Source: a virus
Lineage: Duplodnaviria; Heunggongvirae; Uroviricota; Caudoviricetes
Direction: 5' to 3' (one strand)
Virus record (IMG/VR): IMGVR_UViG_2529293215_000019
DNA length: 29,656 bases
This document shows positions 3,355 through 29,656 of this stretch, piece after piece. The notes under the pieces are model-generated. The model was not told the DNA's origin. It saw nothing but the letters and a program-made list of their open reading frames with translations, and made no database searches. Every line of letters begins with the position of its first letter. Position 1 is the first letter of the stretch. Both the position numbers and the translations under genes were made by a program.

Positions 3355-3626
3355 GTATTCGTATCGAAATTGGCGAACGTTATGTCGTTACCAGTGACAG
3401 CTTTCAGTTTATTCTCCACGAGAAAAAGAGAGCGGAAAGCGGTAAAAACGCCGGCCAGGAATGGCTGGCGGTGGTTGGTTATTACCCGAAATTAAGCCAG
3501 CTCGTTTCCGGCCTGATGCATCACGATATTCTTACCGGAAGCGCAAAGTCTTTTGCTGATTTAAACGCGCAGGTTGAGCAACTCAGCAAGCGTTGTTCAG
3601 AGGCTTTTGGCTCATATGGCCGTTAA
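3351..3626 (+). CDS. hypothetical early protein (P2 orf83 position)
   Basis: 91-aa ORF; ATG at 3351 overlaps upstream stop (ATGA); 3' end overlaps the first ATG of gene A by 11 nt. Confidence 0.5.
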   Translation: MSIRIEIGERYVVTSDSFQFILHEKKRAESGKNAGQEWLAVVGYYPKLSQLVSGLMHHDILTGSAKSFADLNAQVEQLSKRCSEAFGSYGR

Positions 3627-5898
3627 AGCCTCCGGGCGTTTTGTCCCTCCGTCAGCATTTGCCGCAGGCACCGGTAAGACGTTTACCGGTGCTTATGCAT
3701 GGAACGCGCCACGCGAGGCCGTCGGGCGCGAAAGACCCCTTACACGTGACGAGATGCGTCAGGTGCAAGGTGTTTTATCCACGATTAACCGCCTGCCTTA
3801 CTTTTTGCGCTCGCTGTTTACTTCACGCTATGAATACATCCGGCGCAATAAAAGCCCGGTGCACGGGTTTTATTTCCTCACATCCACTTTTCAGCGTCGT
3901 TTATGGCCGCGCATTGAGCGTGTGAATCAGCGCCATGAAATGAACACCGACGCGTCGTTGCTGTTTCTGGCAGAGCGTGACCACTATGCGCGCCTGCCGG
4001 GAATGAATGACAAGGAGCTGAAAAAGTTTGCCGCCCGTATCTCATCGCAGCTTTTCATGATGTATGAGGAACTCAGCGATGCCTGGGTGGATGCACATGG
4101 CGAAAAAGAATCGCTGTTTACGGATGAGGCGCAGGCTCACCTCTATGGTCATGTTGCTGGCGCTGCACGTGCTTTCAATATTTCCCCGCTTTACTGGAAA
4201 AAATACCGTAAAGGACAGATGACCACGAGGCAGGCATATTCTGCCATTGCCCGTCTGTTTAACGATGAGTGGTGGACTCATCAGCTCAAAGGCCAGCGTA
4301 TGCGCTGGCATGAGGCGTTACTGATTGCTGTCGGGGAGGTCAATAAAGACCGTTCTCCTTATGCCAGTAAACATGCCATTCGTGATGTGCGTGCACGCCG
4401 CCAGGCAAATCTGGAATTTCTTAAATCGTGTGACCTTGAAAACAGGGAAACCGGCGAGCGCATCGACCTTATCAGTAAGGTGATAGGCAGTATTTCTAAT
4501 CCTGAAATTCGCCGGATGGAGCTGATGAACACCATTGCCGGTATTGAGCGTTACGCCGCAGCAGAGGGTGATGTGGGGATGTTTATCACGCTGACCGCGC
4601 CGTCAAAGTATCACCCGACACGTCAGGTCGGAAAAGGCGAAAGTAAAACCGTCCAGCTAAATCACGGCTGGAACGATGAGGCATTTAATCCAAAGGATGC
4701 GCAGCGATATCTCTGCCATATCTGGAGCCTGATGCGCACGGCATTCAAGGATAATGATTTACAGGTCTACGGTTTGCGTGTCGTCGAGCCACACCACGAC
4801 GGAACGCCGCACTGGCATATGATGCTTTTTTGTAATCCACGCCAGCGTAACCAGATTATCGAAATCATGCGTCGCTATGCGCTCAAAGAGGATGGCGACG
4901 AAAGAGGAGCCGCGCGAAACCGTTTTCAGGCAAAACACCTTAACCGGGGCGGTGCTGCGGGATATATCGCGAAATACATTTCAAAAAATATCGACGGCTA
5001 TGCACTGGATGGTCAGCTCGATAACGATACCGGTAAGCCGCTTAAAGATACTGCCGCGGCTGTTACCGCATGGGCGTCAACGTGGCGCATCCCGCAATTT
5101 AAAACGGTTGGACTGCCGACAATGGGGGCTTACCGTGAACTACGCAAATTGCCTCGCGGCGTCAGCATTGCTGATGAGTTTGACGAGCGCGTCGAGGCTG
5201 CACGCGCCGCTGCAGACAGTGGTGATTTTGCGTTGTATATCAGCGCGCAGGGCGGGGCAAATGTCCCGCGCGATTGCCAGACTGTCAGGGTCGCCCGTAG
5301 CCCGTCGGATGACGTTAACGAGTACGAGGAAGAAGTCGAGAGAGTGGTCGGCATTTACGCGCCGCATCTCGGCGCGCGTCATATTCATATCACCAGAACG
5401 ACGGACTGGCGCATTGTGCCGAAAGTTCCGGTCGTTGAGCCTTTGACTTTAAAAAGCGGCATCGCCGCGCCTCGGAGTCCTGTCAATAACTGTGGAAAGC
5501 TCATCGGTGGTGATACTTCGTTACCGGCTCCCACGCCTTCTGAGCACGCCGCAGCAGTGCTTAATCTGGTTGATGACGGTGTTATCGAATGGAATGACCC
5601 GGAGGTCGTGAGGGCGCTCAGGGGCGCATTAAAACACGGCCTGAGAAGACCAAACCGTCAGCAAAGAAACGGAAGCCCGTTAAAACCGCATGAAATAGCG
5701 CCATCGGCCAGACTGACCCGGTCGGAAAGAATGCAAATTACCCGTATCCGCGTTGACCTTGCTCAGAACGGTATCAGGCCGCAGCGATGGGAGCTTGAGG
5801 CGCTGGCGCGTGGTGCGACCGTAGATTACAACGGGAAAAAATTTACGTATCCGGTCGCTGATGAGTGGAGTTGGTTTTATTGTTATTCAGAGCAATAA
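3616..5898 (+). CDS. A: rolling-circle replication initiation endonuclease (P2 gpA-like)
   Basis: ORF of about 760 aa from the first ATG (3616; the track start at 3574 is TTG); contains a paired-tyrosine segment AGYIAKYISKNIDGY typical of rolling-circle initiators; position and size match P2 gene A. Confidence 0.88.
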   Translation: MAVKASGRFVPPSAFAAGTGKTFTGAYAWNAPREAVGRERPLTRDEMRQVQGVLSTINRLPYFLRSLFTSRYEYIRRNKSPVHGFYFLTSTFQRRLWPRIERVNQRHEMNTDASLLFLAERDHYARLPGMNDKELKKFAARISSQLFMMYEELSDAWVDAHGEKESLFTDEAQAHLYGHVAGAARAFNISPLYWKKYRKGQMTTRQAYSAIARLFNDEWWTHQLKGQRMRWHEALLIAVGEVNKDRSPYASKHAIRDVRARRQANLEFLKSCDLENRETGERIDLISKVIGSISNPEIRRMELMNTIAGIERYAAAEGDVGMFITLTAPSKYHPTRQVGKGESKTVQLNHGWNDEAFNPKDAQRYLCHIWSLMRTAFKDNDLQVYGLRVVEPHHDGTPHWHMMLFCNPRQRNQIIEIMRRYALKEDGDERGAARNRFQAKHLNRGGAAGYIAKYISKNIDGYALDGQLDNDTGKPLKDTAAAVTAWASTWRIPQFKTVGLPTMGAYRELRKLPRGVSIADEFDERVEAARAAADSGDFALYISAQGGANVPRDCQTVRVARSPSDDVNEYEEEVERVVGIYAPHLGARHIHITRTTDWRIVPKVPVVEPLTLKSGIAAPRSPVNNCGKLIGGDTSLPAPTPSEHAAAVLNLVDDGVIEWNDPEVVRALRGALKHGLRRPNRQQRNGSPLKPHEIAPSARLTRSERMQITRIRVDLAQNGIRPQRWELEALARGATVDYNGKKFTYPVADEWSWFYCYSEQ

Positions 5899-5970
5899 AC
5901 ATCTGATTTAATTTGTTGCATAATAGTAAAATTGCTGTTTATCTGCATGTGGTAACTATTGATAATTATG

Positions 5971-5998
5971 TTGCTAATAATGTGTGCAAATTTATACT
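5971..5998 (+). promoter_or_regulatory. candidate sigma70 promoter for the cargo gene
   Basis: TTGCTA (5971-5976), 16-bp spacer, TATACT (5993-5998), in a very AT-rich 116-bp leader; followed by AAGGTGA SD and ATG at 6015. Confidence 0.5.
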
Positions 5999-6014
5999 GA
6001 AAAAGGTGAAAACG

Positions 6015-7847
6015 ATGAATGATATCTTTGTTCTTACAAGGGAAGAGCTTGAAACACTAGATTATAGTGTTTTTATGCATATACCAGTTACATTTCATGC
6101 ACATAAAATAAAAAAATATCTGGATGGGATTGCTGAATCATCAGAAAACCCCAAAGAGAAAAAATTAGCATCTCTTTTTGGTATGCTATATAGTTTCAAT
6201 TTGCAAGTTGTTAACAACACTCCATCATTTGAACCCCAAATGATTTGGGGTAATAAAAGATCAATATTGCCTGAAGATTTTGATGAGCAGGTGAATGACT
6301 GTCTTTTATATGTTTCTCAAAAAATAACCAATCCATTTTTGTTATCAAGAATATATGATGTTGTTTGGTGTAATAATCGGAAAAATAAAGACGTGGCAAT
6401 TAAAGCAATTGATTCCTATGCTGAAATGCTAAATATAGCAATTGAAAGACTAATAATAAAAAACGAAAGCATGGATGAAAGTGATTTAAATTGCTTTATT
6501 TTTGCTCGTGATTATATTGCTAGGGCTTTGCACATTAATAAAATGGTCTACCCTAGAAAATCAGAAGGAAACATGGCGATTAAAAATGCCATTCATTCTC
6601 TTTATAGTATTCAAAATGAAAGATTAATCTTTGAAGGTTTCAATAATTTGACTTGGTTTATGGTGCGTGATTTTGATGGGTATAATCTGCAGTATGCGGA
6701 AAATGCTGAGAAGATGGCTGAGCAGCATAAAGATAAAAAATATTATGATGCTGTAAAATCACTTTATATGACAAGTGCAGTTATTTATGAAAAAAATGGT
6801 GAGTATGAACGTGCCAAGAGATGTAAACTGGCATCTGCAAATATTACTATTAAAGTTGCAACAGATCGACCTGATAATATGGGTAAGATCTCTTGGTTAA
6901 GAACAGCTATCTCTGAATTAAGACAGTACGGTGGTGATAGCCAACAGATAGAAGATTTAAAGGAACAACTTGCTAATTTGAGAGAAGAAGTAAGGAGTGA
7001 ATATGTCACTTTAAGCCATTCTATTGATATTAGTGACTTGGTTGCTGAAAGTGAAAAAAAACTGACGGGGCGTTCTTTGCCCGATATATTCAAAGTTTTA
7101 ATGCGTGAAACACCGATTGAAAATATTGAAAGCATGAGGGAGCAAGTTTTAAGATTATCAGAAAAAAGTTTATTCTCTAGTTTTGTTGGAACAGAAATTA
7201 ATGATGAGAGTGGGCGTAAGGTATATACAATCCCGCCGTTGGATAATAAAAAAGATATGAGTGATGATGTTGTTATTGATCAATATCTAAGAAATTTCGA
7301 GATTACTCATAAGATTTTTGTAAACGGTGTCTTTGAACCTGCTCGCTATGTACTTTCTCAAGAACATGGCTTGACGTTGTCAACATTCGTTAAATTAGTT
7401 ACAACTAGTCCAATTGTCAAGCCGGAGTTTAGGGAGATTTTTAATTTGGGCTTTTACAAATTATGGCAGGGAGATTACATCAGTGCAGCTTATCTTTTAA
7501 TACCACAAATGGAAGGTATGGTTCGTTATTATTATGAGCTTAGTGGAAAGGATGCTACTAGATATTTGGATAAGGGATTAGAGGAGTCAACAAGTATTTC
7601 TCAGCTTCTAGATAAATGCAGAGATGATTTGGAAAGTATCTTTTCTAAGAATCTTGTTTTAACTATCGATGTTCTTTTTAATAGAAAGAGTGGGGCAACC
7701 TTAAGACATAAATTAGCACATGGTAATTTATATACTAATGCTTGTTACGATGAAACAACGACATATGCATGCATCCTGATTTTCTTTCTGTGTGCTTATC
7801 CTCTCCTACCATATTTTGATACTGTATTTGAACAGGGCTCTGTTTGA
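6015..7847 (+). CDS. hypothetical 610-aa protein in the A-cos variable locus; candidate anti-phage defence / abortive-infection protein with C-terminal HEPN-like R-x4-H motif
   Basis: Long uninterrupted ORF; first ATG at 6015 with AAGGTGA SD (track start at 5913 is TTG); markedly AT-rich by eye versus GC-rich flanking phage genes; occupies the P2 tin/old position; RHKLAHG motif at 7704-7724. No family recognised from sequence alone. Confidence 0.8.
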   Translation: MNDIFVLTREELETLDYSVFMHIPVTFHAHKIKKYLDGIAESSENPKEKKLASLFGMLYSFNLQVVNNTPSFEPQMIWGNKRSILPEDFDEQVNDCLLYVSQKITNPFLLSRIYDVVWCNNRKNKDVAIKAIDSYAEMLNIAIERLIIKNESMDESDLNCFIFARDYIARALHINKMVYPRKSEGNMAIKNAIHSLYSIQNERLIFEGFNNLTWFMVRDFDGYNLQYAENAEKMAEQHKDKKYYDAVKSLYMTSAVIYEKNGEYERAKRCKLASANITIKVATDRPDNMGKISWLRTAISELRQYGGDSQQIEDLKEQLANLREEVRSEYVTLSHSIDISDLVAESEKKLTGRSLPDIFKVLMRETPIENIESMREQVLRLSEKSLFSSFVGTEINDESGRKVYTIPPLDNKKDMSDDVVIDQYLRNFEITHKIFVNGVFEPARYVLSQEHGLTLSTFVKLVTTSPIVKPEFREIFNLGFYKLWQGDYISAAYLLIPQMEGMVRYYYELSGKDATRYLDKGLEESTSISQLLDKCRDDLESIFSKNLVLTIDVLFNRKSGATLRHKLAHGNLYTNACYDETTTYACILIFFLCAYPLLPYFDTVFEQGSV

Positions 7848-7874
7848 TAACGTATACGTTGAGGCATAAAACCT

Positions 7875-7921
7875 ATGCATACTTAGCTGCATCAATTTGC
7901 ACGAGGTATTTCAGTATGCAT
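7875..7921 (+). terminator. candidate stem-loop downstream of the cargo gene
   Basis: 9-bp inverted repeat ATGCATACT (7875-7883) / AGTATGCAT (7913-7921) followed by TTTTCTG; the loop is long (29 nt), so terminator function is uncertain. Confidence 0.3.
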
Positions 7922-7998
7922 TTTCTGCGTAATAGTAGGGATTGCTTGGTTTGGTAGTTGTAATTCAACTGCATTCAAACCGACCCATGAAGCGGGCG

Positions 7999-8017
7999 GG
8001 CGAGGCGGGGAAAGCAC
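7999..8017. other. cos site (19-nt cohesive-end sequence of P2-type phages)
   Basis: GGCGAGGCGGGGAAAGCAC matches the P2 cohesive-end sequence as I recall it; lies between the end of the early/accessory region and portal gene Q, as expected. Confidence 0.7.
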
Positions 8018-8158
8018 TGCGCGCTGGCGGTGGTGCTGATTTTATTTTTTCAGCGTCTGAGCGCGTCGTGGCGGCGTTTAGATTTTGCGCCGGGGCGTTG
8101 CTGTGTCTGCGGGCTGTTTTGTGCGGTGGTGAGCGTGTGAGGGCGTGATGACTGGGTG

Positions 8159-8181
8159 TAAAAAAGCCGCCCGCAGGCGGC
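8159..8181 (-). terminator. rho-independent terminator of the P-Q operon
   Basis: Plus strand reads TAAAAAA-GCCGCC-CGCA-GGCGGC; on the minus strand this is a GC-rich 6-bp stem, 4-nt loop, then a U-run, immediately after the Q stop (8187). Confidence 0.65.
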
Positions 8182-8186
8182 GATGT

Positions 8187-9221
8187 TCAGCCGTTGTCAG
8201 TGTCCAGTGAGTAGTTTTTAAAGCGGATGACCTCCTGACCGAGCCAGCCGTTTATCTCGCGGATCCTGTCCTGTAACGGGATAAGCTCATTGCGGACAAA
8301 GACCTTTGCCACTTTCTCAATATCACCCAGCGACCCGACGTTCTCCGGCTTGCCGCCCATCAACTGAAAGGGGATGCGGTGCGCGTCCAGCAGGTCAGCG
8401 GCGCTGGCTTTTTTGATATTAAAAAAATCGTCCTTCGTTGCCACTTCACTGAGCGGGATAATTTTAATGCCGTCGGCTTTTCCCTGCGGGGCATAGAGAA
8501 ACAGATTTTTAAAGTTGTTGCGGCCTTTCGACTTGACCATGTTTTCGCGAAGCATTTCGATATCGTTGCGATCCTGCACGGCATCAGTGACGTACATGAT
8601 GTATCCGGCATGTGCGCCGTTTTCGTAATACTTGCGGCGGAACAGCGTGGCTGACTCATTCAGCCAGGCAGAGTTAAGGGCGCTGAGATATTCCGGCATG
8701 CCGTACAGCTCCTGATTAATATCCGGCTCCAGCAGATGAAACACGGAGCCGGGCGCGAAAGGTGTCGGCTCGTTGAAGGACGGCACCCACCAGTAAACAT
8801 CCTCCTCCACGCCACGGCGGGTATATTTTGCCGGTGAGGTTTCCAGTCTGATGACCTTACCGGTGGTGCTGTAACGCTTTTCCAGAAACGCATTACCGAA
8901 CACCAGAAAATCCAGCGCAAAGCGGCTGAAATCCTGCTGGGAAAGCCACGGATGCGGGATAAATGTCGAGGCCAGAATATTGCGTTTGACGTAAATCGGG
9001 GAGCTGTGATGCACGGCAGCACGCAGGCTTTTTGCCAGACCGGTAAAGCTGACCGGTGGCTCATACCATCTGCCGTTACTGATGCACTCGACGTAATCCA
9101 GAATGTCACGGCGGTCGAGTACCGGCACCGGCTCACCAAAGGTGAATGCCTCCATTTTCGGGGCGCTGGCGGTCATTTTTTTTGCCGCAGGTTGCGGTGT
9201 TTTCCCTTTTTTCTTGCTCAT
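8187..9221 (-). CDS. Q: portal protein (P2 gpQ-like)
   Basis: 344 aa, the length of P2 gpQ; ATG at 9221 overlaps the stop of upstream P (ATGA); located next to cos. Confidence 0.9.
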   Translation of the reverse strand: MSKKKGKTPQPAAKKMTASAPKMEAFTFGEPVPVLDRRDILDYVECISNGRWYEPPVSFTGLAKSLRAAVHHSSPIYVKRNILASTFIPHPWLSQQDFSRFALDFLVFGNAFLEKRYSTTGKVIRLETSPAKYTRRGVEEDVYWWVPSFNEPTPFAPGSVFHLLEPDINQELYGMPEYLSALNSAWLNESATLFRRKYYENGAHAGYIMYVTDAVQDRNDIEMLRENMVKSKGRNNFKNLFLYAPQGKADGIKIIPLSEVATKDDFFNIKKASAADLLDAHRIPFQLMGGKPENVGSLGDIEKVAKVFVRNELIPLQDRIREINGWLGQEVIRFKNYSLDTDNG

Positions 9222-10993
9222 CAGTAAAACTCCAGAATGGTGGATGTCAGCGGTGTGCTGATACCGGCGGTGAGTGGCTCATTTAACAGGGCGTGCATGG
9301 TCGCCCATGCGAGGTCGGCGTGGCTGGCTTCCTCGCTGCGGCTGGCCTCATAGGTGGCGCTGCGTCCGCTGCTGGTCATGGTCTTGCGGATAGCCATAAA
9401 CGAGCTGGTGATGTCGGTGGCGCTGACGTCATATTCCAGACAGCCACGACGGATAACGTCTTTTGCCTTGAGCACCATTGCGGTTTTCATTTCCGGCGTG
9501 TAGCGGATATCGCGCGCGGCGGGATAGAACGAGCGCACGAGCTGGAACACGCCGACACCGAGGCCGGTGGCATCAATACCGATGTATTCGACGTTATATT
9601 TTTCGGTGAGTTTGCGGATGGATTCCGCCTGGGTGGCAAAGTCCATACCTTTCCACTGGTGACGCTCAAGTATTCTGAATTTGCCACCGGCCACCACCGG
9701 CGGTGCCAGTACCACGCATCCGGCGCTGTCGCCACGGTGTGACGGGTCGTAACCAATCCATACCGGTCGGGAGCCGAACGGATTTGCGGCAAACGGCGCA
9801 TAGTCTTCCCATTCTTCCAGCGTGTCGACCATGCAGCGTTGCAGCTCCTCGAACGGGAATACCGATGCCTTGTCATCAACAAATTCACACATGAACAGGT
9901 TTTTAAAATCGTCGGCGCTGTTTTCGCGTTTAAGCTGCTCAATGTCGAACAATGTGCAGCCACCTTTCAGGGCGTCCTCAATGGTGACAATCTGCCGCCA
10001 CTGGCCGTCCGCACAGAGAAGCCCACCGGCAAGGGCGTTATGACTGACGTCGATTTCCACGCGTTCGGCGGCGCTGGCGCGTCCCCGGTTGAACAGTTCA
10101 CCTGACCAGAACGGGTAGGCGTCGTGCGCCAGCGTGGACGGGGTGGAGAAATAGGTCGAGCGCAGGTGACTCTGTGAGGCCATACCTGATGCCACCTTAC
10201 GCAGTACCTGAAAATTCGGGATCCAGAAAATCTCGTCGACGTACAGGTCGCCGTTATGGCTCTGTGCGGTGTTGGAGTTGGTGCCGAGAAAAATCAGTTT
10301 TGCGCCGTTATTGCCCAGGACAATCGGGTCACCGGTCAGGTCAACGTCAACCAGACGGGCAAAGGCGATGATGTATTCGCGGAACACATACGCCTGCGTT
10401 TTACTGGCCGACAGAAAAATCTGGTTATGACCGGTTTTCAGGGCGCGCAGCAGCGCCTCGCGGGAAAAATAAAACGTCGCGCCAATCTGGCGGGATTTCA
10501 GGATATCGCGGATGCGGTGCTCAAGCCCGGCGCGATACCAGTGCAACTGATATTCGAAAGACTGCTCAAAGAAAATCTGCTCCAGCTTTTCGATGGCCTC
10601 GTCACTGAAAAAATTCTTTTTCGGTTTGCGACGCCCGCCTTTGTTGCGGTTAGCGATGTTCGGATTAAGGTCTGCCTCGTTGCCGGTCTGGCTGTAGCGG
10701 TTTACCCGTGCCAGTCGTTCAATCTGGCGTCCGAGCAGGTCAATTTCCTTGAAGTCACCGCCGGTTTTCTGCGGTTTGATGATGAGCTGGGTCAGCCGCG
10801 CTTCCAGACTCATTTCGACACGGCTGATGGGGGCAACACTGTCCCAGCCGTCGCGCTGTTTCCAGCTCTGCACCGTCGGGCGTTTCATCTGCAACATGGC
10901 GGCAATCTGCGGCACGGAAAACCCCTGCCAGTACAGCAGCGCCGCCTGACGACGCGGGTCGTGTAAAAGAGTGGTGTCTGTGGTGATGGTCAT
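9221..10993 (-). CDS. P: terminase large (ATPase) subunit (P2 gpP-like)
   Basis: 590 aa from the first ATG (10993, preceded by GAGG; track start at 11023 is an alternative codon), the length of P2 gpP; N-terminal HTH-like region then ATPase/nuclease-sized body; upstream of the portal gene. Confidence 0.9.
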   Translation of the reverse strand: MTITTDTTLLHDPRRQAALLYWQGFSVPQIAAMLQMKRPTVQSWKQRDGWDSVAPISRVEMSLEARLTQLIIKPQKTGGDFKEIDLLGRQIERLARVNRYSQTGNEADLNPNIANRNKGGRRKPKKNFFSDEAIEKLEQIFFEQSFEYQLHWYRAGLEHRIRDILKSRQIGATFYFSREALLRALKTGHNQIFLSASKTQAYVFREYIIAFARLVDVDLTGDPIVLGNNGAKLIFLGTNSNTAQSHNGDLYVDEIFWIPNFQVLRKVASGMASQSHLRSTYFSTPSTLAHDAYPFWSGELFNRGRASAAERVEIDVSHNALAGGLLCADGQWRQIVTIEDALKGGCTLFDIEQLKRENSADDFKNLFMCEFVDDKASVFPFEELQRCMVDTLEEWEDYAPFAANPFGSRPVWIGYDPSHRGDSAGCVVLAPPVVAGGKFRILERHQWKGMDFATQAESIRKLTEKYNVEYIGIDATGLGVGVFQLVRSFYPAARDIRYTPEMKTAMVLKAKDVIRRGCLEYDVSATDITSSFMAIRKTMTSSGRSATYEASRSEEASHADLAWATMHALLNEPLTAGISTPLTSTILEFY

Positions 10994-13156: not shown

Positions 13157-13900
13157 ATGACGAGTCCCGCACAGCGCCACATGATGCGGGTCTCGGCAGC
13201 GATGACCGCGCAGCGGGAAGCCGCCCCGCTGCGACATGCAACTGTCTATGAGCAGATGCTGGTCAAGCTGGCCGCAGACCAGCGCACACTGAAAGCGATT
13301 TATTCAAAAGAGCTTAAGGCCGCGAAAAAGCGCGAACTGCTGCCGTTCTGGTTGCCGTGGGTGAACGGTGTGCTGGAGCAGGGCAAAGGTGCACAGGATG
13401 ACATTCTGATGACGGTCATGCTGTGGCGTCTGGATACCGGCGATATTGCCGGTGCGCTGGAGATTGCCCGTTATGCCCTGAAGTACGGTCTGACCATGCC
13501 GGGTAAACACCGCCGCACCCCGCCGTACATGTTCACCGAGGAGGTCGCACTCGCGGCCATGCGCGCTCACGCTGCCGGTGAATCTGTGGATATCCGCCTG
13601 CTGACGGAGACCCTTGAACTGACCGCCACGGCTGACATGCCTGATGAAGTGCGCGCAAAGCTGCACAAAATCACCGGTCTGTTTCTGCGTGACGCTGGTG
13701 ATGCCGCCGGTGCGCTGGCTCACCTGCAACGTGCGACACAGCTCGACTGTCAGGCAGGCGTCAAAAAAGAGATTGAACGACTGGAGCGGGAGCTGAAACC
13801 GAAGCCGGAGCCGCAGCCAAAAGCGGTCACCCGCGCCCCGCGTAAGACCCGGAGCGTGACACCGGCAAAACGTGGACGCCCGAAAAAGAAAGCCAGTTAA
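13157..13900 (+). CDS. M: terminase small / endonuclease subunit (P2 gpM-like)
   Basis: 247 aa, the length of P2 gpM; basic Lys/Arg-rich C-terminal tail. Confidence 0.85.
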   Translation: MTSPAQRHMMRVSAAMTAQREAAPLRHATVYEQMLVKLAADQRTLKAIYSKELKAAKKRELLPFWLPWVNGVLEQGKGAQDDILMTVMLWRLDTGDIAGALEIARYALKYGLTMPGKHRRTPPYMFTEEVALAAMRAHAAGESVDIRLLTETLELTATADMPDEVRAKLHKITGLFLRDAGDAAGALAHLQRATQLDCQAGVKKEIERLERELKPKPEPQPKAVTRAPRKTRSVTPAKRGRPKKKAS

Positions 13901-19326: not shown

Positions 19327-19930
19327 TTCGCGACTGCTGCCGACCGGCTCATCACCGCTTGAAGTCGCCGCCGCAAAAGCCTGTGCGGAAATTGAAAAAA
19401 CGCCGGTCAGTATTCGTGAGCTGTGGAACCCGGATACCTGTCCGGCAAATCTGCTGCCGTGGCTGGCGTGGTCATTTTCGGTTGACCGCTGGGATGATAA
19501 ATGGCCGGAAGCGACAAAACGCGCTGTTATCCGCGATGCGTATTTCATTCACTGCCATAAGGGTACTATAGGCGCAATCCGGCGTGTGGTGGAGCCGCTC
19601 GGCTATCTGATTGAGGTGAGGGAGTGGTGGCAGCTCAACGAGGAGCCGGGGACGTTCCGCATCGTTGTTGGCGTGCTTGAGCAGGGTATTACCGAGGAAA
19701 TGTATCAGGAGCTGGAGCGTCTCGTTGCTGATGCAAAACCGGCAAGCCGCCATCTGACGGGACTGGCTATCAGTTTAAGTACAACCGGCAACATTTTTGC
19801 CGGTGCGGGATGCTATCACGGTGACGCCCTGACGGTTTATCCCTACACCCCGGAGGCCATTATTGTCGGAGGGGATTATTTCCCGGCCTCGGCCATTCAT
19901 TTAATTGATAACCTGAGAGTAAACGCATGA
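19319..19930 (+). CDS. I: baseplate protein (P2 gpI-like)
   Basis: 203 aa; ATG at 19319 overlaps the J stop and the stop overlaps the H start; somewhat longer than the 176 aa I recall for P2 gpI. Confidence 0.8.
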   Translation: MSDSRLLPTGSSPLEVAAAKACAEIEKTPVSIRELWNPDTCPANLLPWLAWSFSVDRWDDKWPEATKRAVIRDAYFIHCHKGTIGAIRRVVEPLGYLIEVREWWQLNEEPGTFRIVVGVLEQGITEEMYQELERLVADAKPASRHLTGLAISLSTTGNIFAGAGCYHGDALTVYPYTPEAIIVGGDYFPASAIHLIDNLRVNA

Positions 19931-21120
19931 CAGTGAAATACTACGCCATTCTGACTAATCAGGGCGCAGCACGGCTGGCTAACGCGACGATGCTCGGCAG
20001 TAAGCTGAATCTGACGCAAATGGCCGTTGGTGATGCGAATGGTGTCTTGCCGACACCAGACCCGGCACAGACAAAACTGATTAACCAGAAACGCATCGCG
20101 CCGCTGAATCTTCTGAGTGTTGACCCGAACAACCAGAGCCAGATTATTGCGGAGCAAATCATCCCTGAGAACGAGGGTGGATTCTGGATCCGTGAGATTG
20201 GGCTTTATGATGATGAAGGCGTACTCATTGCGGTGGCGAACTGCCCGGAAACGTACAAACCGCAGTTGCAGGAAGGCAGTGGTCGTACCCAGACTATCCG
20301 CATGATTCTGGTTGTCACGAATACCGAAGCTATCACGCTGAAAATCGACCCGTCGGTGGTACTGGCGACCCGTAAATACGTGGATGATGAAGTCCTGGAA
20401 TTAAAGCTGTATGTGGATGACCAGATGAGAAACCACATTGCCGCACAGGATCCTCATACCCAGTATGCGCAGAAACATAATCCGACATTTACCGGAGAAC
20501 CAAAAGCGCCGACGCCTGCCGCAGGAAATAACACCACGCGGATTGCGACCACTGAGTTTGTTCAGGCCGCTATTACCGCTCTGATTAACGGTGCGCCAGC
20601 CACGCTGGACACACTGAAAGAAATTGCCGCAGCCATTAACAATGACCCGAAATTCAGTACCACCATTAACAATGCGCTGTCAGGTAAGCAGCCACTGGAT
20701 GAGACGCTGACTCATTTGAGTGGAAAGGATGTTGCCGGTCTTCTCGCATACCTTGGTTTGGGAGAAGCGGCAAAACGGAATGTAGGTAACGGGCAAAACC
20801 AAATTCCGGATATGGCGGCGTTTGCCAGTTCACTTTCATCAACGGGTTTTCAAAAACTTCCTTCAGGTCTGATTATTCAGTGGGGTATTGTCAGTGGAGC
20901 ATCAAACTATACGGTGACTTACCCGGTAACATTCCCAAATCGTTCACTTGCGCTGTTGGCTGTGCCACATACAACGTCGGTGGCTGGTATATCTGCAATG
21001 GGCATAGCGAACTGTTCTGATATCAGCAAATCACAGTTCTATATAATTGTTGGCGGTATATCTCAGGGAGAAATTGTCAAATATGAAAGATCCTGTTTTT
21101 GGGTAGCAATCGGTGTATAG
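19927..21120 (+). CDS. H: tail fibre protein (gpH-like), constant N-terminal part fused to invertible C-terminal variable part
   Basis: 397 aa; ATG at 19927; the last ~110 codons lie inside the invertible segment, downstream of the 34-bp repeat at 20753-20786. Confidence 0.8.
   Translation: MTVKYYAILTNQGAARLANATMLGSKLNLTQMAVGDANGVLPTPDPAQTKLINQKRIAPLNLLSVDPNNQSQIIAEQIIPENEGGFWIREIGLYDDEGVLIAVANCPETYKPQLQEGSGRTQTIRMILVVTNTEAITLKIDPSVVLATRKYVDDEVLELKLYVDDQMRNHIAAQDPHTQYAQKHNPTFTGEPKAPTPAAGNNTTRIATTEFVQAAITALINGAPATLDTLKEIAAAINNDPKFSTTINNALSGKQPLDETLTHLSGKDVAGLLAYLGLGEAAKRNVGNGQNQIPDMAAFASSLSSTGFQKLPSGLIIQWGIVSGASNYTVTYPVTFPNRSLALLAVPHTTSVAGISAMGIANCSDISKSQFYIIVGGISQGEIVKYERSCFWVAIGV
20753..20786. 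repeat. left 34-bp inverted repeat (invertase crossover site) inside gene H
   Basis: TTGGTTTGGGAGAAGCGGCAAAACGGAATGTAGG; the perfect reverse complement occurs at 22300-22333. Confidence 0.8.
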
Positions 21121-21128
21121 GTATATCT

Positions 21129-21524
21129 ATGATTTATTTCTCAAAATCGACTAATGGTTTTTTCTTTGATGGTATAAACAGCGACATGCCTGCTGACATT
21201 GTTGAGATAAGTACAGACTTATACAATGAATTAATTGCCGGACAGCAGGAAGGGGGTAAATTAATCACGTCAGATGAAAATGGTTTACCGGTACTGAAAT
21301 CTCCGGCGATTGATTATGTCGCACGTGCTGAAAATCAGCGAATGCAGTTACTTGCTCATGCCGATAATGTCACAGCTGACTGGCGGGTGGAATTAATGCT
21401 TGGTGATATCAGCAGTACAGATAAAGAAAAACTATCTGCCTGGATGGACTACAAAAAAGAAGTAAAAGCCGTCGACACTTCGACGGCTCCTGAGATTAGC
21501 TGGCCTGAGTTACCGGAGGTGTAG
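21129..21524 (+). CDS. tail fibre assembly protein (Tfa, orientation 1)
   Basis: 131 aa from the first ATG (21129), directly after the H stop; C-terminus VDTSTAPEISWPELPEV resembles the conserved Tfa C-terminal segment and is shared with the minus-strand copy. Confidence 0.7.
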   Translation: MIYFSKSTNGFFFDGINSDMPADIVEISTDLYNELIAGQQEGGKLITSDENGLPVLKSPAIDYVARAENQRMQLLAHADNVTADWRVELMLGDISSTDKEKLSAWMDYKKEVKAVDTSTAPEISWPELPEV

Positions 21525-21939
21525 GCCATTCAATATCTGGAGCACTGGAGGTATCCACCAGTTCCAGTGCGTCCAGGTAATCCAGCCACAAATTATATTG
21601 CGCCAGTTCCTCACCTTTCAGACGACCAATAGCTGCTTTGCCAGGCCATTGCTTACTGTTCATGTATTCGTTAGCCTGGTTAATTAGTAGCTGTCTTTCT
21701 GATTCAGTAATTTCAATAAGCTCTTCATGCGTGGGTGGAGGAATATCTGCCCACGCAGGCAGCCCATCATCTCCGGCAATACGGATTTTTCCTTGTGGCG
21801 GTTCAGCCATAAACTCACTGATAATATTTTGATTTACTTCCTTAGCGTCTGATAAATCCCATCCCTCTGATTTATATTTATCAATCATATCCACAGGGAA
21901 AAAAGCATTATGCCTTGCGCTATAAACATATTCGTTCAT
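21496..21939 (-). CDS. tail fibre assembly protein (Tfa', orientation 2)
   Basis: 147 aa from the ATG at 21939 (GGGTGA SD; track start at 21948 is GTG); C-terminus VDTSSAPDIEWPTPPV parallels the plus-strand Tfa; 3' end overlaps the plus-strand tfa by 29 bp. Confidence 0.65.
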   Translation of the reverse strand: MNEYVYSARHNAFFPVDMIDKYKSEGWDLSDAKEVNQNIISEFMAEPPQGKIRIAGDDGLPAWADIPPPTHEELIEITESERQLLINQANEYMNSKQWPGKAAIGRLKGEELAQYNLWLDYLDALELVDTSSAPDIEWPTPPVTQAS

Positions 21940-21959
21940 ATAAATCACCCTGAATAAAA

Positions 21960-22333
21960 TTACTCACCAACAGCCCACCAACTGTAATTCATCGATACTG
22001 TGGAGCTGGTTGATGCAGTTCTGTAAGCGGAATTAAAACCGGTTAGTGTTGGACCTTCTGCAGTCATCACGAATCCCCGTCCAGCGCCTAAAGGCGCACC
22101 ACCATCACCAGAATGGGTAAGCATGGCGCAGTCCACTTTTTTAGGAAAAGGGATGCTGAATGTAATTCTCATTGTTTGCGTCGATAATGTCGGCGTAATC
22201 GCACCACGACCATATTGCAGGATTTTCCCGTTGGGTAATTTCATCCATCCATCACCACTGGCAAAAGAGGTCATGTCCGGTATCTGATTTTCCCCCGTTC
22301 CTACATTCCGTTTTGCCGCTTCTCCCAAACCAA
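21960..22333 (-). other. alternative tail-fibre C-terminal coding segment (Hv'), without its own start; fused to H only after inversion
   Basis: Minus-strand reading frame through the right repeat encodes [24 protein letters not shown]..., paralleling the H segment [25 protein letters not shown]... after the left repeat; stop at 21960-21962. Confidence 0.65.
22300..22333. repeat. right 34-bp inverted repeat (invertase crossover site)
   Basis: Reverse complement of 22300-22333 is identical to 20753-20786. Confidence 0.8.
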
Positions 22334-22400
22334 CGTTTATGAAAATGCAGAGATAACGGGCAAGTGGCATCATCTCCGGTTTTTATTCAGGGGGATGCTC

Positions 22401-22994
22401 ATGCTTATTGGCTATGTACGCGTGTCGACAAATGACCAGAACACGGAATTGCAGCGTAACGCGCTGGAGTGCGCAGGATGCGAGCGGATTTTTGAGGATA
22501 AAATCAGCGGCACGAAGTCCGACCGACCGGGACTGAAAAAACTGCTCAGAACATTATCAGCAGGTGACACTCTGGTAGTCTGGAAGCTGGACAGGCTGGG
22601 GCGTAGTATGCGGCATCTGGTCATTCTGGTTGAGGAACTGCGCGAACGCGGCGTTAATTTTCGCAGCCTGACAGATGCTATTGATACCAGCACGCCGATG
22701 GGGCGTTTTTTCTTTCATGTGATGGGTGCCCTGGCTGAAATGGAACGAGAGCTCATTGTCGAGCGGACTCGGGCCGGGCTGGAAGCGGCCAGAGCCAAAG
22801 GTCGTATTGGTGGCAGACGTCCTAAACTCACCGCGAGTGAGTGGGAGCAGGCCGGGCGTTTGCTGGCTGCAGGGGAGTCACGTCAACGCGTGGCACTGAT
22901 TTTTGATATTGGTCTGTCCACGCTCTATAAAAAATTTCCCTCATCAGCGACAAAGAATAAATTGTGTCATCCCTTAGCCAACCGGGACAAATAG
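22401..22994 (+). CDS. serine recombinase DNA invertase (Gin/Cin/Pin/Hin family)
   Basis: N-terminus MLIGYVRVSTNDQNTELQRNAL with the catalytic-serine motif, and HTH-containing C-terminus LSTLYKK, closely resemble Mu Gin; AGGGGGA SD upstream of the ATG at 22401; adjacent to the invertible segment. Confidence 0.9.
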   Translation: MLIGYVRVSTNDQNTELQRNALECAGCERIFEDKISGTKSDRPGLKKLLRTLSAGDTLVVWKLDRLGRSMRHLVILVEELRERGVNFRSLTDAIDTSTPMGRFFFHVMGALAEMERELIVERTRAGLEAARAKGRIGGRRPKLTASEWEQAGRLLAAGESRQRVALIFDIGLSTLYKKFPSSATKNKLCHPLANRDK

Positions 22995-29360: not shown

Positions 29361-29383
29361 TTTGTTTTATCTGTTTGTTTTAT
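29361..29383 (+). repeat. tandem direct repeat TTTGTTTTAT x2 in the ogr upstream region (candidate promoter or operator element)
   Basis: TTTGTTTTAT at 29361-29370 and 29374-29383, separated by CTG; TATAAG (29381-29386) could be a -10 element. Confidence 0.4.
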
Positions 29384-29437
29384 AAGGATAAATTAACTAA
29401 AATGGCACCATCAACAAAACCGGAAGAGGTGCTCGCG

Positions 29438-29656
29438 ATGTTTCATTGTCCTTTATGCCAGCATGCCGCACATGCGCGTACAAGCCGCTATATCACTGAC
29501 ACGACAAAAGAGCGTTATCACCAGTGTCAGAACGTGAATTGCAGCGCCACGTTCATCACTTATGAGTCGGTACAGCGATACATCGTGAAGCCGGGAGAAG
29601 TCCACGCCGTAAGACCGCACCCGTTGCCGTCAGGGCAGCAAATTATGTGGATGTAA
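29438..29656 (+). CDS. ogr: late gene transcriptional activator, zinc-finger protein (P2 Ogr-like)
   Basis: 72 aa from the first ATG (29438; GGAAGAGGTG SD); Cys4 zinc finger CPLCQ...CQNVNC; to my recollection essentially identical to P2 Ogr; last gene before the expected attR. Confidence 0.85.
   Translation: MFHCPLCQHAAHARTSRYITDTTKERYHQCQNVNCSATFITYESVQRYIVKPGEVHAVRPHPLPSGQQIMWM

Follow-up and report, generated by a model that had tools for sequence, protein, structure and literature searches.

A P2-type cos site and a candidate TGCAT recognition array beside the variable cargo locus of a P2-like prophage

The stretch of DNA analyzed here (the window; 29,656 nt) contains nearly the whole of a P2-like prophage with the gene order A–cargo–cos–tQ–Q–P…M. 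The integrase gene (int; 1–996, − strand) lies at one end, with an HTH repressor-like gene and cox beside it and ahead of the replication gene A (3616–5898, + strand; Pfam Phage_GPA, 2.4e-123; RefSeq ‘replication endonuclease’), which forms the left border of the variable locus. On the other side of the cargo and cos, the rho-independent terminator tQ of the P–Q operon (8166–8181, − strand) was found by a terminator scan and aligns to P2 tQ (NC_001895, 160–181). The portal gene Q (8187–9221, − strand; Pfam Phage_portal; RefSeq phage portal protein) occupies the same position as P2 Q and adjoins the large terminase gene P (9221–10993, − strand; RefSeq coordinates; Pfam Terminase_6N, Terminase_6C, Terminase_5 and HTH_23), whose product gpP combines an N-terminal HTH (Terminase_5) with an ATPase domain and an RNaseH-like nuclease domain. 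The small terminase gene M (13157–13900, + strand; Pfam Phage_term_smal, 2.5e-48; RefSeq ‘terminase endonuclease subunit’) is also present, as are scaffold gene O, capsid gene N, and the lysis and tail genes. The window begins exactly at the stop-codon end of int and ends inside ogr (29375–29656), and the att sites and chromosomal junctions therefore fall just outside it. The two stretches compared, 7400–8190 and 5400–6300, match a prophage of E. coli O157:H7 str. F8092B with 100% identity; that prophage adjoins pflA/ycaM.

We considered and rejected the Z/fun position (21496–22373) as a second slot for cargo, as this region forms the alternative half of an invertible segment of tail-fibre genes (19927–22994). 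The segment carries the tail fibre gene H (397 aa) and an assembly protein gene on the + strand, and an alternative fibre C-terminus (21960–22373) and a further assembly protein gene (21496–21948) on the − strand. Inverted repeats of 89 nt (20741–20829 and 22257–22345; 81% complementary) flank the tail-fibre segment, and a serine invertase gene (Resolvase and HTH_7; 22395–22994) lies after it. The arrangement is similar to that of the Mu Gin and P1 Cin host-range switches.

That P2 has a cos site with 19-nt ends is textbook knowledge. The window carries GGCGAGGCGGGGAAAGCAC on the + strand at 7999–8017, as an exact and single occurrence, and this 19-mer is letter for letter the sequence annotated in P2 as ‘cosL; left cohesive end’ (NC_001895, 1–19) and as ‘cosR; right cohesive end’ (AF063097, 33575–33593). 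On the basis of this identity we assign 7999–8017 as cosN. The proposal of the earlier note that the 19-mer is the P2 cohesive-end sequence is thus borne out, and so is its expectation that the region should align to P2 cos: over 7860–8200, aligned to both P2 ends, the two flanks align together with the 19-mer, with the right flank collinear with P2 from 8018 to the Q stop codon and the left flank alignable only from ~7965. A chance match is ruled out by the uniqueness of the 19-mer, by the 0.03 matches with up to three mismatches expected by chance in the window (shuffles), and by a fully syntenic context in which the site adjoins tQ and Q and the cognate terminase genes P and M reside in the same element.

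Several deposited genomes of P2-like phages take as their first base the match of window position 7999. By homology with the P2 annotation, the top-strand nick is predicted between 7998 and 7999 and the bottom-strand nick between 8017 and 8018, with 5′ overhangs. After induction, the phage terminase (gpP and gpM, both encoded in the window) would cut the circular genome at 7999–8017, and the staggered nicks would yield the 19-nt 5′ overhangs that form the ends of virion DNA. We infer cleavage at this site from homology, and it is as predicted ends that the 19-mer can be said to set the virion genome ends, as had been claimed. Recognition of 7999–8017 as a P2-type cos is correct; it is a known element in a known arrangement. 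Taken as a whole, the explanation of this segment as the cosN of a complete-looking P2-like (Peduovirus) prophage is very probably right.

The conserved part of the site extends beyond the 19-mer. We compared 80 P2-like loci, one per bacterial species, retrieved via the Q protein, and a recognizable 19-mer with 0–5 mismatches is present in 77 of them, varying at positions 5 (A/T), 14 (A/T), and 19 (C/T). Anchoring these 77 loci at their 19-mers gives high column information over −36 to +25, a span that comprises ATGCAACTGCATTAAAACCGnCCnnnAAGCGGGCA, the 19-mer, and TGCGCGC; conservation falls away past +25, and outside the −36 to +25 span column information is near zero with the sole exception of −124 to −96. 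In the window, the left half of this core (ATTCAACTGCATTCAAACCGACCCATGAAGCGGGCG; 7963–7998, + strand) corresponds to the conserved −36 to −1 segment and includes a TGCAT at −29 (7970–7974), while the right half (TGCGCGC; 8018–8024, + strand) corresponds to +19 to +25, where the 77 loci retain 1.8–2.0 bits per column.

The cos/Q region matches 2156 of 5426 complete E. coli genomes by megablast. In the weakest class of these matches only 7966–8024 is covered (query 567–625), and the matches of P4-like satellites stop at 8022–8029. Four loci of the weakest class were inspected: two are P4-like, with psu adjoining cos, and two are not P4-like, one of the latter having a replication endonuclease gene that flanks cos. 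The segment in common with the P4-like satellites (7966–8024, + strand) is the counterpart of the ‘55-bp core’ published for cos sites of the P2 family and credited to Ziermann & Calendar 1990 in passages of PMC5694545 and PMC9594776. The functional cos extends past the 19-mer: it comprises a conserved core of ~60 bp (7963–8024), shared by P4-like satellites so as to hijack the same terminase, and probably also an arm farther left with three phased TGCAT repeats (7876–7902).

Two further features lie at or across this core. A + strand hairpin, GCGCTGGCGGTGGTGC, followed by a T-run, is found at 8021–8050 directly to the right of cos and is kept in P2, and a T-rich stretch at +40 to +50 is weakly conserved across species. 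The hairpin could stop transcripts of the A/cargo unit from running on into cos. An open reading frame that spans cos (7942–8148; 68 aa) has no Pfam match and is unannotated in the identical RefSeq prophage, and we therefore treat it as non-coding.

The gene to the left of cos encodes a DUF7380 and DUF4209 (HEPN) protein (6015–7847, + strand; Pfam, PADLOC, and RefSeq WP_000997853.1). The longest open reading frame of the cargo extends from 5913 to 7847, and the protein is 610–644 aa in length. Its Pfam match to DUF7380 is strong (3.8e-39), and that of the C-terminal DUF4209 is weak (1.1e-3) and below the Pfam cut-off. DUF4209 has been placed in the HEPN superfamily (PMC3710099), and LRHKLAHG at ~7707–7730 fits the Rx4H motif. 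Its PADLOC match is to the ‘phage defence candidate’ model PDC-S39 (2.8e-84), for which we found no experimental test in the searchable literature. These matches point to a putative anti-phage defense function of the cargo. The cargo reading frame ends at 7847, 151 bp from cos, in agreement with the distance of about 150 bp between the cargo and the packaging site given in the earlier note.

The cargo occupies the slot of P2 old and tin, which is the published cos-proximal defense hotspot. Rousset et al. 2022 described this cos-adjacent hotspot of P2-like phages between gpA and gpQ (PMC9122126), and a 2026 study re-analyzed it (PMC13586616). The locus in the window resembles that hotspot in that it lies between gpA and gpQ and adjoins cos, in that its gene content is highly variable among otherwise homologous prophages, and in that its cargo fits a defense-candidate model; it differs in that neither PMC9122126 nor PMC13586616 was found to mention PDC-S39 in its main text. 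Because the P2 slot between A and cos carries orf91, tin, and old, the locus corresponds to the right end of virion DNA by the convention of the P2 map, and the view of the variable locus as the right-end region of the linear genome holds on that map.

Cargo is also found on the other side of cos in other lineages, since the spacing between cos and Q exceeds 600 bp (up to ~4 kb) in 30 of 78 species-level loci; it is 152–234 bp in 45 of them and 169 bp in the window. Such right-side cargo sits directly after the TGCGCGC and T-rich segment, and P4-like elements are arranged likewise. The position right of cos is noted as a hotspot in PMC5694545, with reference to Dodd & Egan 1996 and Nakayama et al. 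1999. Among individual genomes, E. coli MS14386 (NZ_LR130552.1) has right-side cargo with reverse-transcriptase genes on both sides of cos, and E. coli S21 (NZ_CP010230.1) has an AAA ATPase gene right of cos and a replication endonuclease gene left of it.

The variable cassette in the window lies between the 3′ end of A and the cos core (5869–7960, + strand), as defined by the ends of homology, and it is AT-rich (GC 0.33). On the cos side, homology with other E. coli P2-like prophages starts at 7956–7970 (megablast, 5426 complete genomes), and on the opposite side it stops at ~5868–5878, ~30 bp ahead of the A stop codon. The A gene is found in 1681 of the 5426 genomes and the match continues into the cargo in ~55 of them; likewise, 53 of the 2156 genomes matched by the cos/Q query cover the part of the query that belongs to the cargo. 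The positions at which homology stops and resumes thus define an exchangeable unit of ~5869–7960 that reaches to ~40 bp from the nick. Separating the cargo gene from the core are 115 bp (7848–7962) that occur in 55 E. coli genomes only, all of which also have the same cargo, with an identity of at least 95% in all 55 and at least 99% in 54. Therefore, this segment travels with the cassette and is not part of a fixed backbone. The unit that is swapped begins at the A 3′ end, stops where the cos core starts on its left side, and brings its own copy of the TGCAT arm.

Base composition places its step elsewhere than had been proposed. The GC content is 0.38 in 7848–7962 and 0.63 in 7963–8024, and in 50-bp windows it stays at 0.36–0.48 over 7850–7999 and then reaches 0.70 at 7975–8024. 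These windows locate the compositional step at ~7975, within the conserved cos core, and the sharp AT/GC boundary that had been reported near 7860–7930 is not seen. The suggestion that constrained cos flanks account for such a boundary is only partly right: it was tied to the wrong boundary, and the arm and the GC step do not coincide.

The −124 to −96 exception to the loss of conservation corresponds to a phased array of short repeats that probably constitute a distal arm of cos (7876–7902, + strand). In the window, comparison with other loci identifies TGCAT at 7876–7880 (−123) and 7888–7892 (−111) and a degenerate third repeat, TGCAC, at 7898–7902 (−101), with a further TGCAT copy at 7970 (−29) in the core. 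We compared the array in 78 sequences, made up of 75 species loci, the window, P2, and P4; HP1 was left out because its cos is too different. TGCAT lies exactly at −29 in 75 of the 78, at −111 in 51, at −101 in 51, and at −124 to −120 in most, against a background of 0–3 per 10-bp bin over ±400 bp. At least two copies fall in −135 to −89 in 69 of the 78 sequences, vs 2 of 936 control windows, and degenerate copies read CGCAT or TGCAC. The array is also present in two P4-like satellites and in two P2-like prophages with other cargo. P4 itself has it at −124/−111/−101/−29, even though P4 and P2 have nothing in common beyond cos. In the Pseudomonas phage phiCTX no TGCAT was found in the cos region; instead, counted from the GGCG anchor, YGCAG occurs at −110, −100, −84, −38, and −29. 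The phiCTX record annotates cosL, cosR, repeats R3–R6, and IHF sites around cos. The motif follows the lineage, TGCAT in the enterobacterial phages and YGCAG in phiCTX, and a motif that differs by lineage but keeps its positions is the pattern expected of an array to which a protein binds.

As judged from these positions, the distal array is a candidate for an element that terminase recognizes, a counterpart of cosB, and terminase may bind to it; gpM, the N-terminal HTH of gpP, or a host factor could be the binder. Longer cos flanks were reported to raise cosmid transduction more than 1000-fold (PMC9594776), an increase that is consistent with a role of the array. The positions of TGCAT are consistent with a required cos arm of ~125 bp, and functional importance of the cos flanks is plausible. 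The coding part of the cargo stops 28 bp ahead of the first TGCAT, and cargo genes apparently cannot come nearer than ~130 bp to cos on the left side, a minimum distance that the array probably sets. The idea that the flanks of cos constrain cargo replacement thus holds at the level of the motif, in the fixed TGCAT positions, but not at the level of the arm sequence, which is linked to the cassette and not to the backbone. A broader proposal, to which we give about an even chance, is that a (T/C)GCA(T/G) array at approximately −124/−111/−101 and −29 is a Peduoviridae-wide, cosB-like terminase-recognition element that has been copied by satellites, has a motif that covaries with lineage, and must be brought or retained by every defense cassette that enters the hotspot. 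In addition to the array, many P2-like prophages from outside E. coli, as well as P4, have a GC-rich inverted repeat (consensus CGCCAG..CTGGCGCGG) at −66 to −49, which is absent from the window and from P2.

Comparison with known cos systems places the site closest to that of P2 in its core and apart from it in its spacer and cargo. The P2 cos (NC_001895/AF063097) has the identical 19-mer, three substitutions in −36 to −1, and a right flank ~93–95% identical up to Q; it is likewise placed between a right-end accessory locus and tQ/Q, and the array stands at −123, −111, −101, and −29 in both, the third distal repeat being TGCAC in the window. In contrast, the spacer that separates the core from the distal array (−96 to −37) is unrelated in sequence, and where P2 has old and tin on the − strand, the window has the DUF7380/DUF4209 gene on the + strand and no orf91. 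The cos of P4 and P4-like elements shares the identical 19-mer, a core of ~59 bp, and TGCAT at −124/−111/−101/−29, but its conserved left arm follows psu, its variable cargo lies right of cos, and it has a GC-rich hairpin at −66 to −47 that is absent from the window. The cos of phage lambda is organized as cosQ–cosN–cosB, with R sites and an IHF site, and has 12-nt overhangs. By analogy, lambda and the window both appear to combine a nicking site with short repeats arrayed next to it at about helical spacing; the array positions terminase, a function that is putative in the window. The two differ in that there is no sequence relationship and in the length of the overhangs, 12 nt vs 19 nt; in lambda the array is on the side that is packaged first.

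A different view of the 150 bp that separate cargo from cos is that they are only the cassette's own 3′ untranslated or terminator DNA, in which case TGCAT would have no packaging role and the boundary would be set by a crossover site, either the core or the cos cut, and not by a functional requirement for flanks. The behavior of 7848–7962 as a part of the cassette, present only with the same cargo, fits this view, as does the start of homology with other prophages only at 7956–7970, and Rousset et al. speculate that cohesive ends promote recombination at the locus (PMC9122126). However, otherwise unrelated cassettes from 75 species keep TGCAT at the same distances from cos, P4 satellites keep it although their left flank is psu rather than cargo, and in phiCTX a motif that differs by one base occupies these positions. 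Since neutral DNA would not hold the TGCAT positions across lineages, a neutral 3′ UTR is disfavored, and we judge it unlikely that the gap is explained in this way.

The remaining alternatives concern the 19-mer itself. Many enterobacterial P2-like prophages are cryptic, and the att sites and the part of ogr past its first 93 codons lie outside the window, so that 7999–8017 might be an inactive relic in a defective prophage that is never cut and gives rise to no virion ends. Yet every P2 gene expected from int to ogr (int, C, cox, A, Q, P, O, N, M, the lysis and tail genes, D, and ogr) has a full-length open reading frame, the 19-mer is without a mismatch, and a co-resident P2-like helper could use the cos of even a defective prophage in trans; a relic is, in our estimate, quite improbable. 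P4 has the identical 19-mer and the same core, which would also be expected if the cos belonged to a P4-like satellite and not to a P2-like phage, but here cos is flanked by gpA on one side and tQ/Q/P on the other, there are no psu, sid, delta, or alpha genes in the window, and the right flank (8025–8186) matches P2 and not P4. Gene context thus rules out a satellite origin, and we assign it a negligible probability.

With 7999–8017 as the cosN of a P2-like prophage, the segment sets the predicted virion ends and the genome map of the prophage. These results leave current understanding unchanged; their sole addition is a comparative definition of the cos arm, which the 1990 deletion study may already cover. 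A comparative cos map of core and TGCAT arm is useful for the design of P2/P4 cosmids and helps annotation pipelines to draw the boundaries of the hotspot, and location in the hotspot, a known reservoir of anti-phage systems, makes the DUF7380/DUF4209 gene a reasonable candidate for defense testing. If the array is indeed a family-wide recognition element, there would be a hard minimum of ~130 bp between cargo and cos, and the ~60-bp core would be the crossover point at which cassettes are exchanged.
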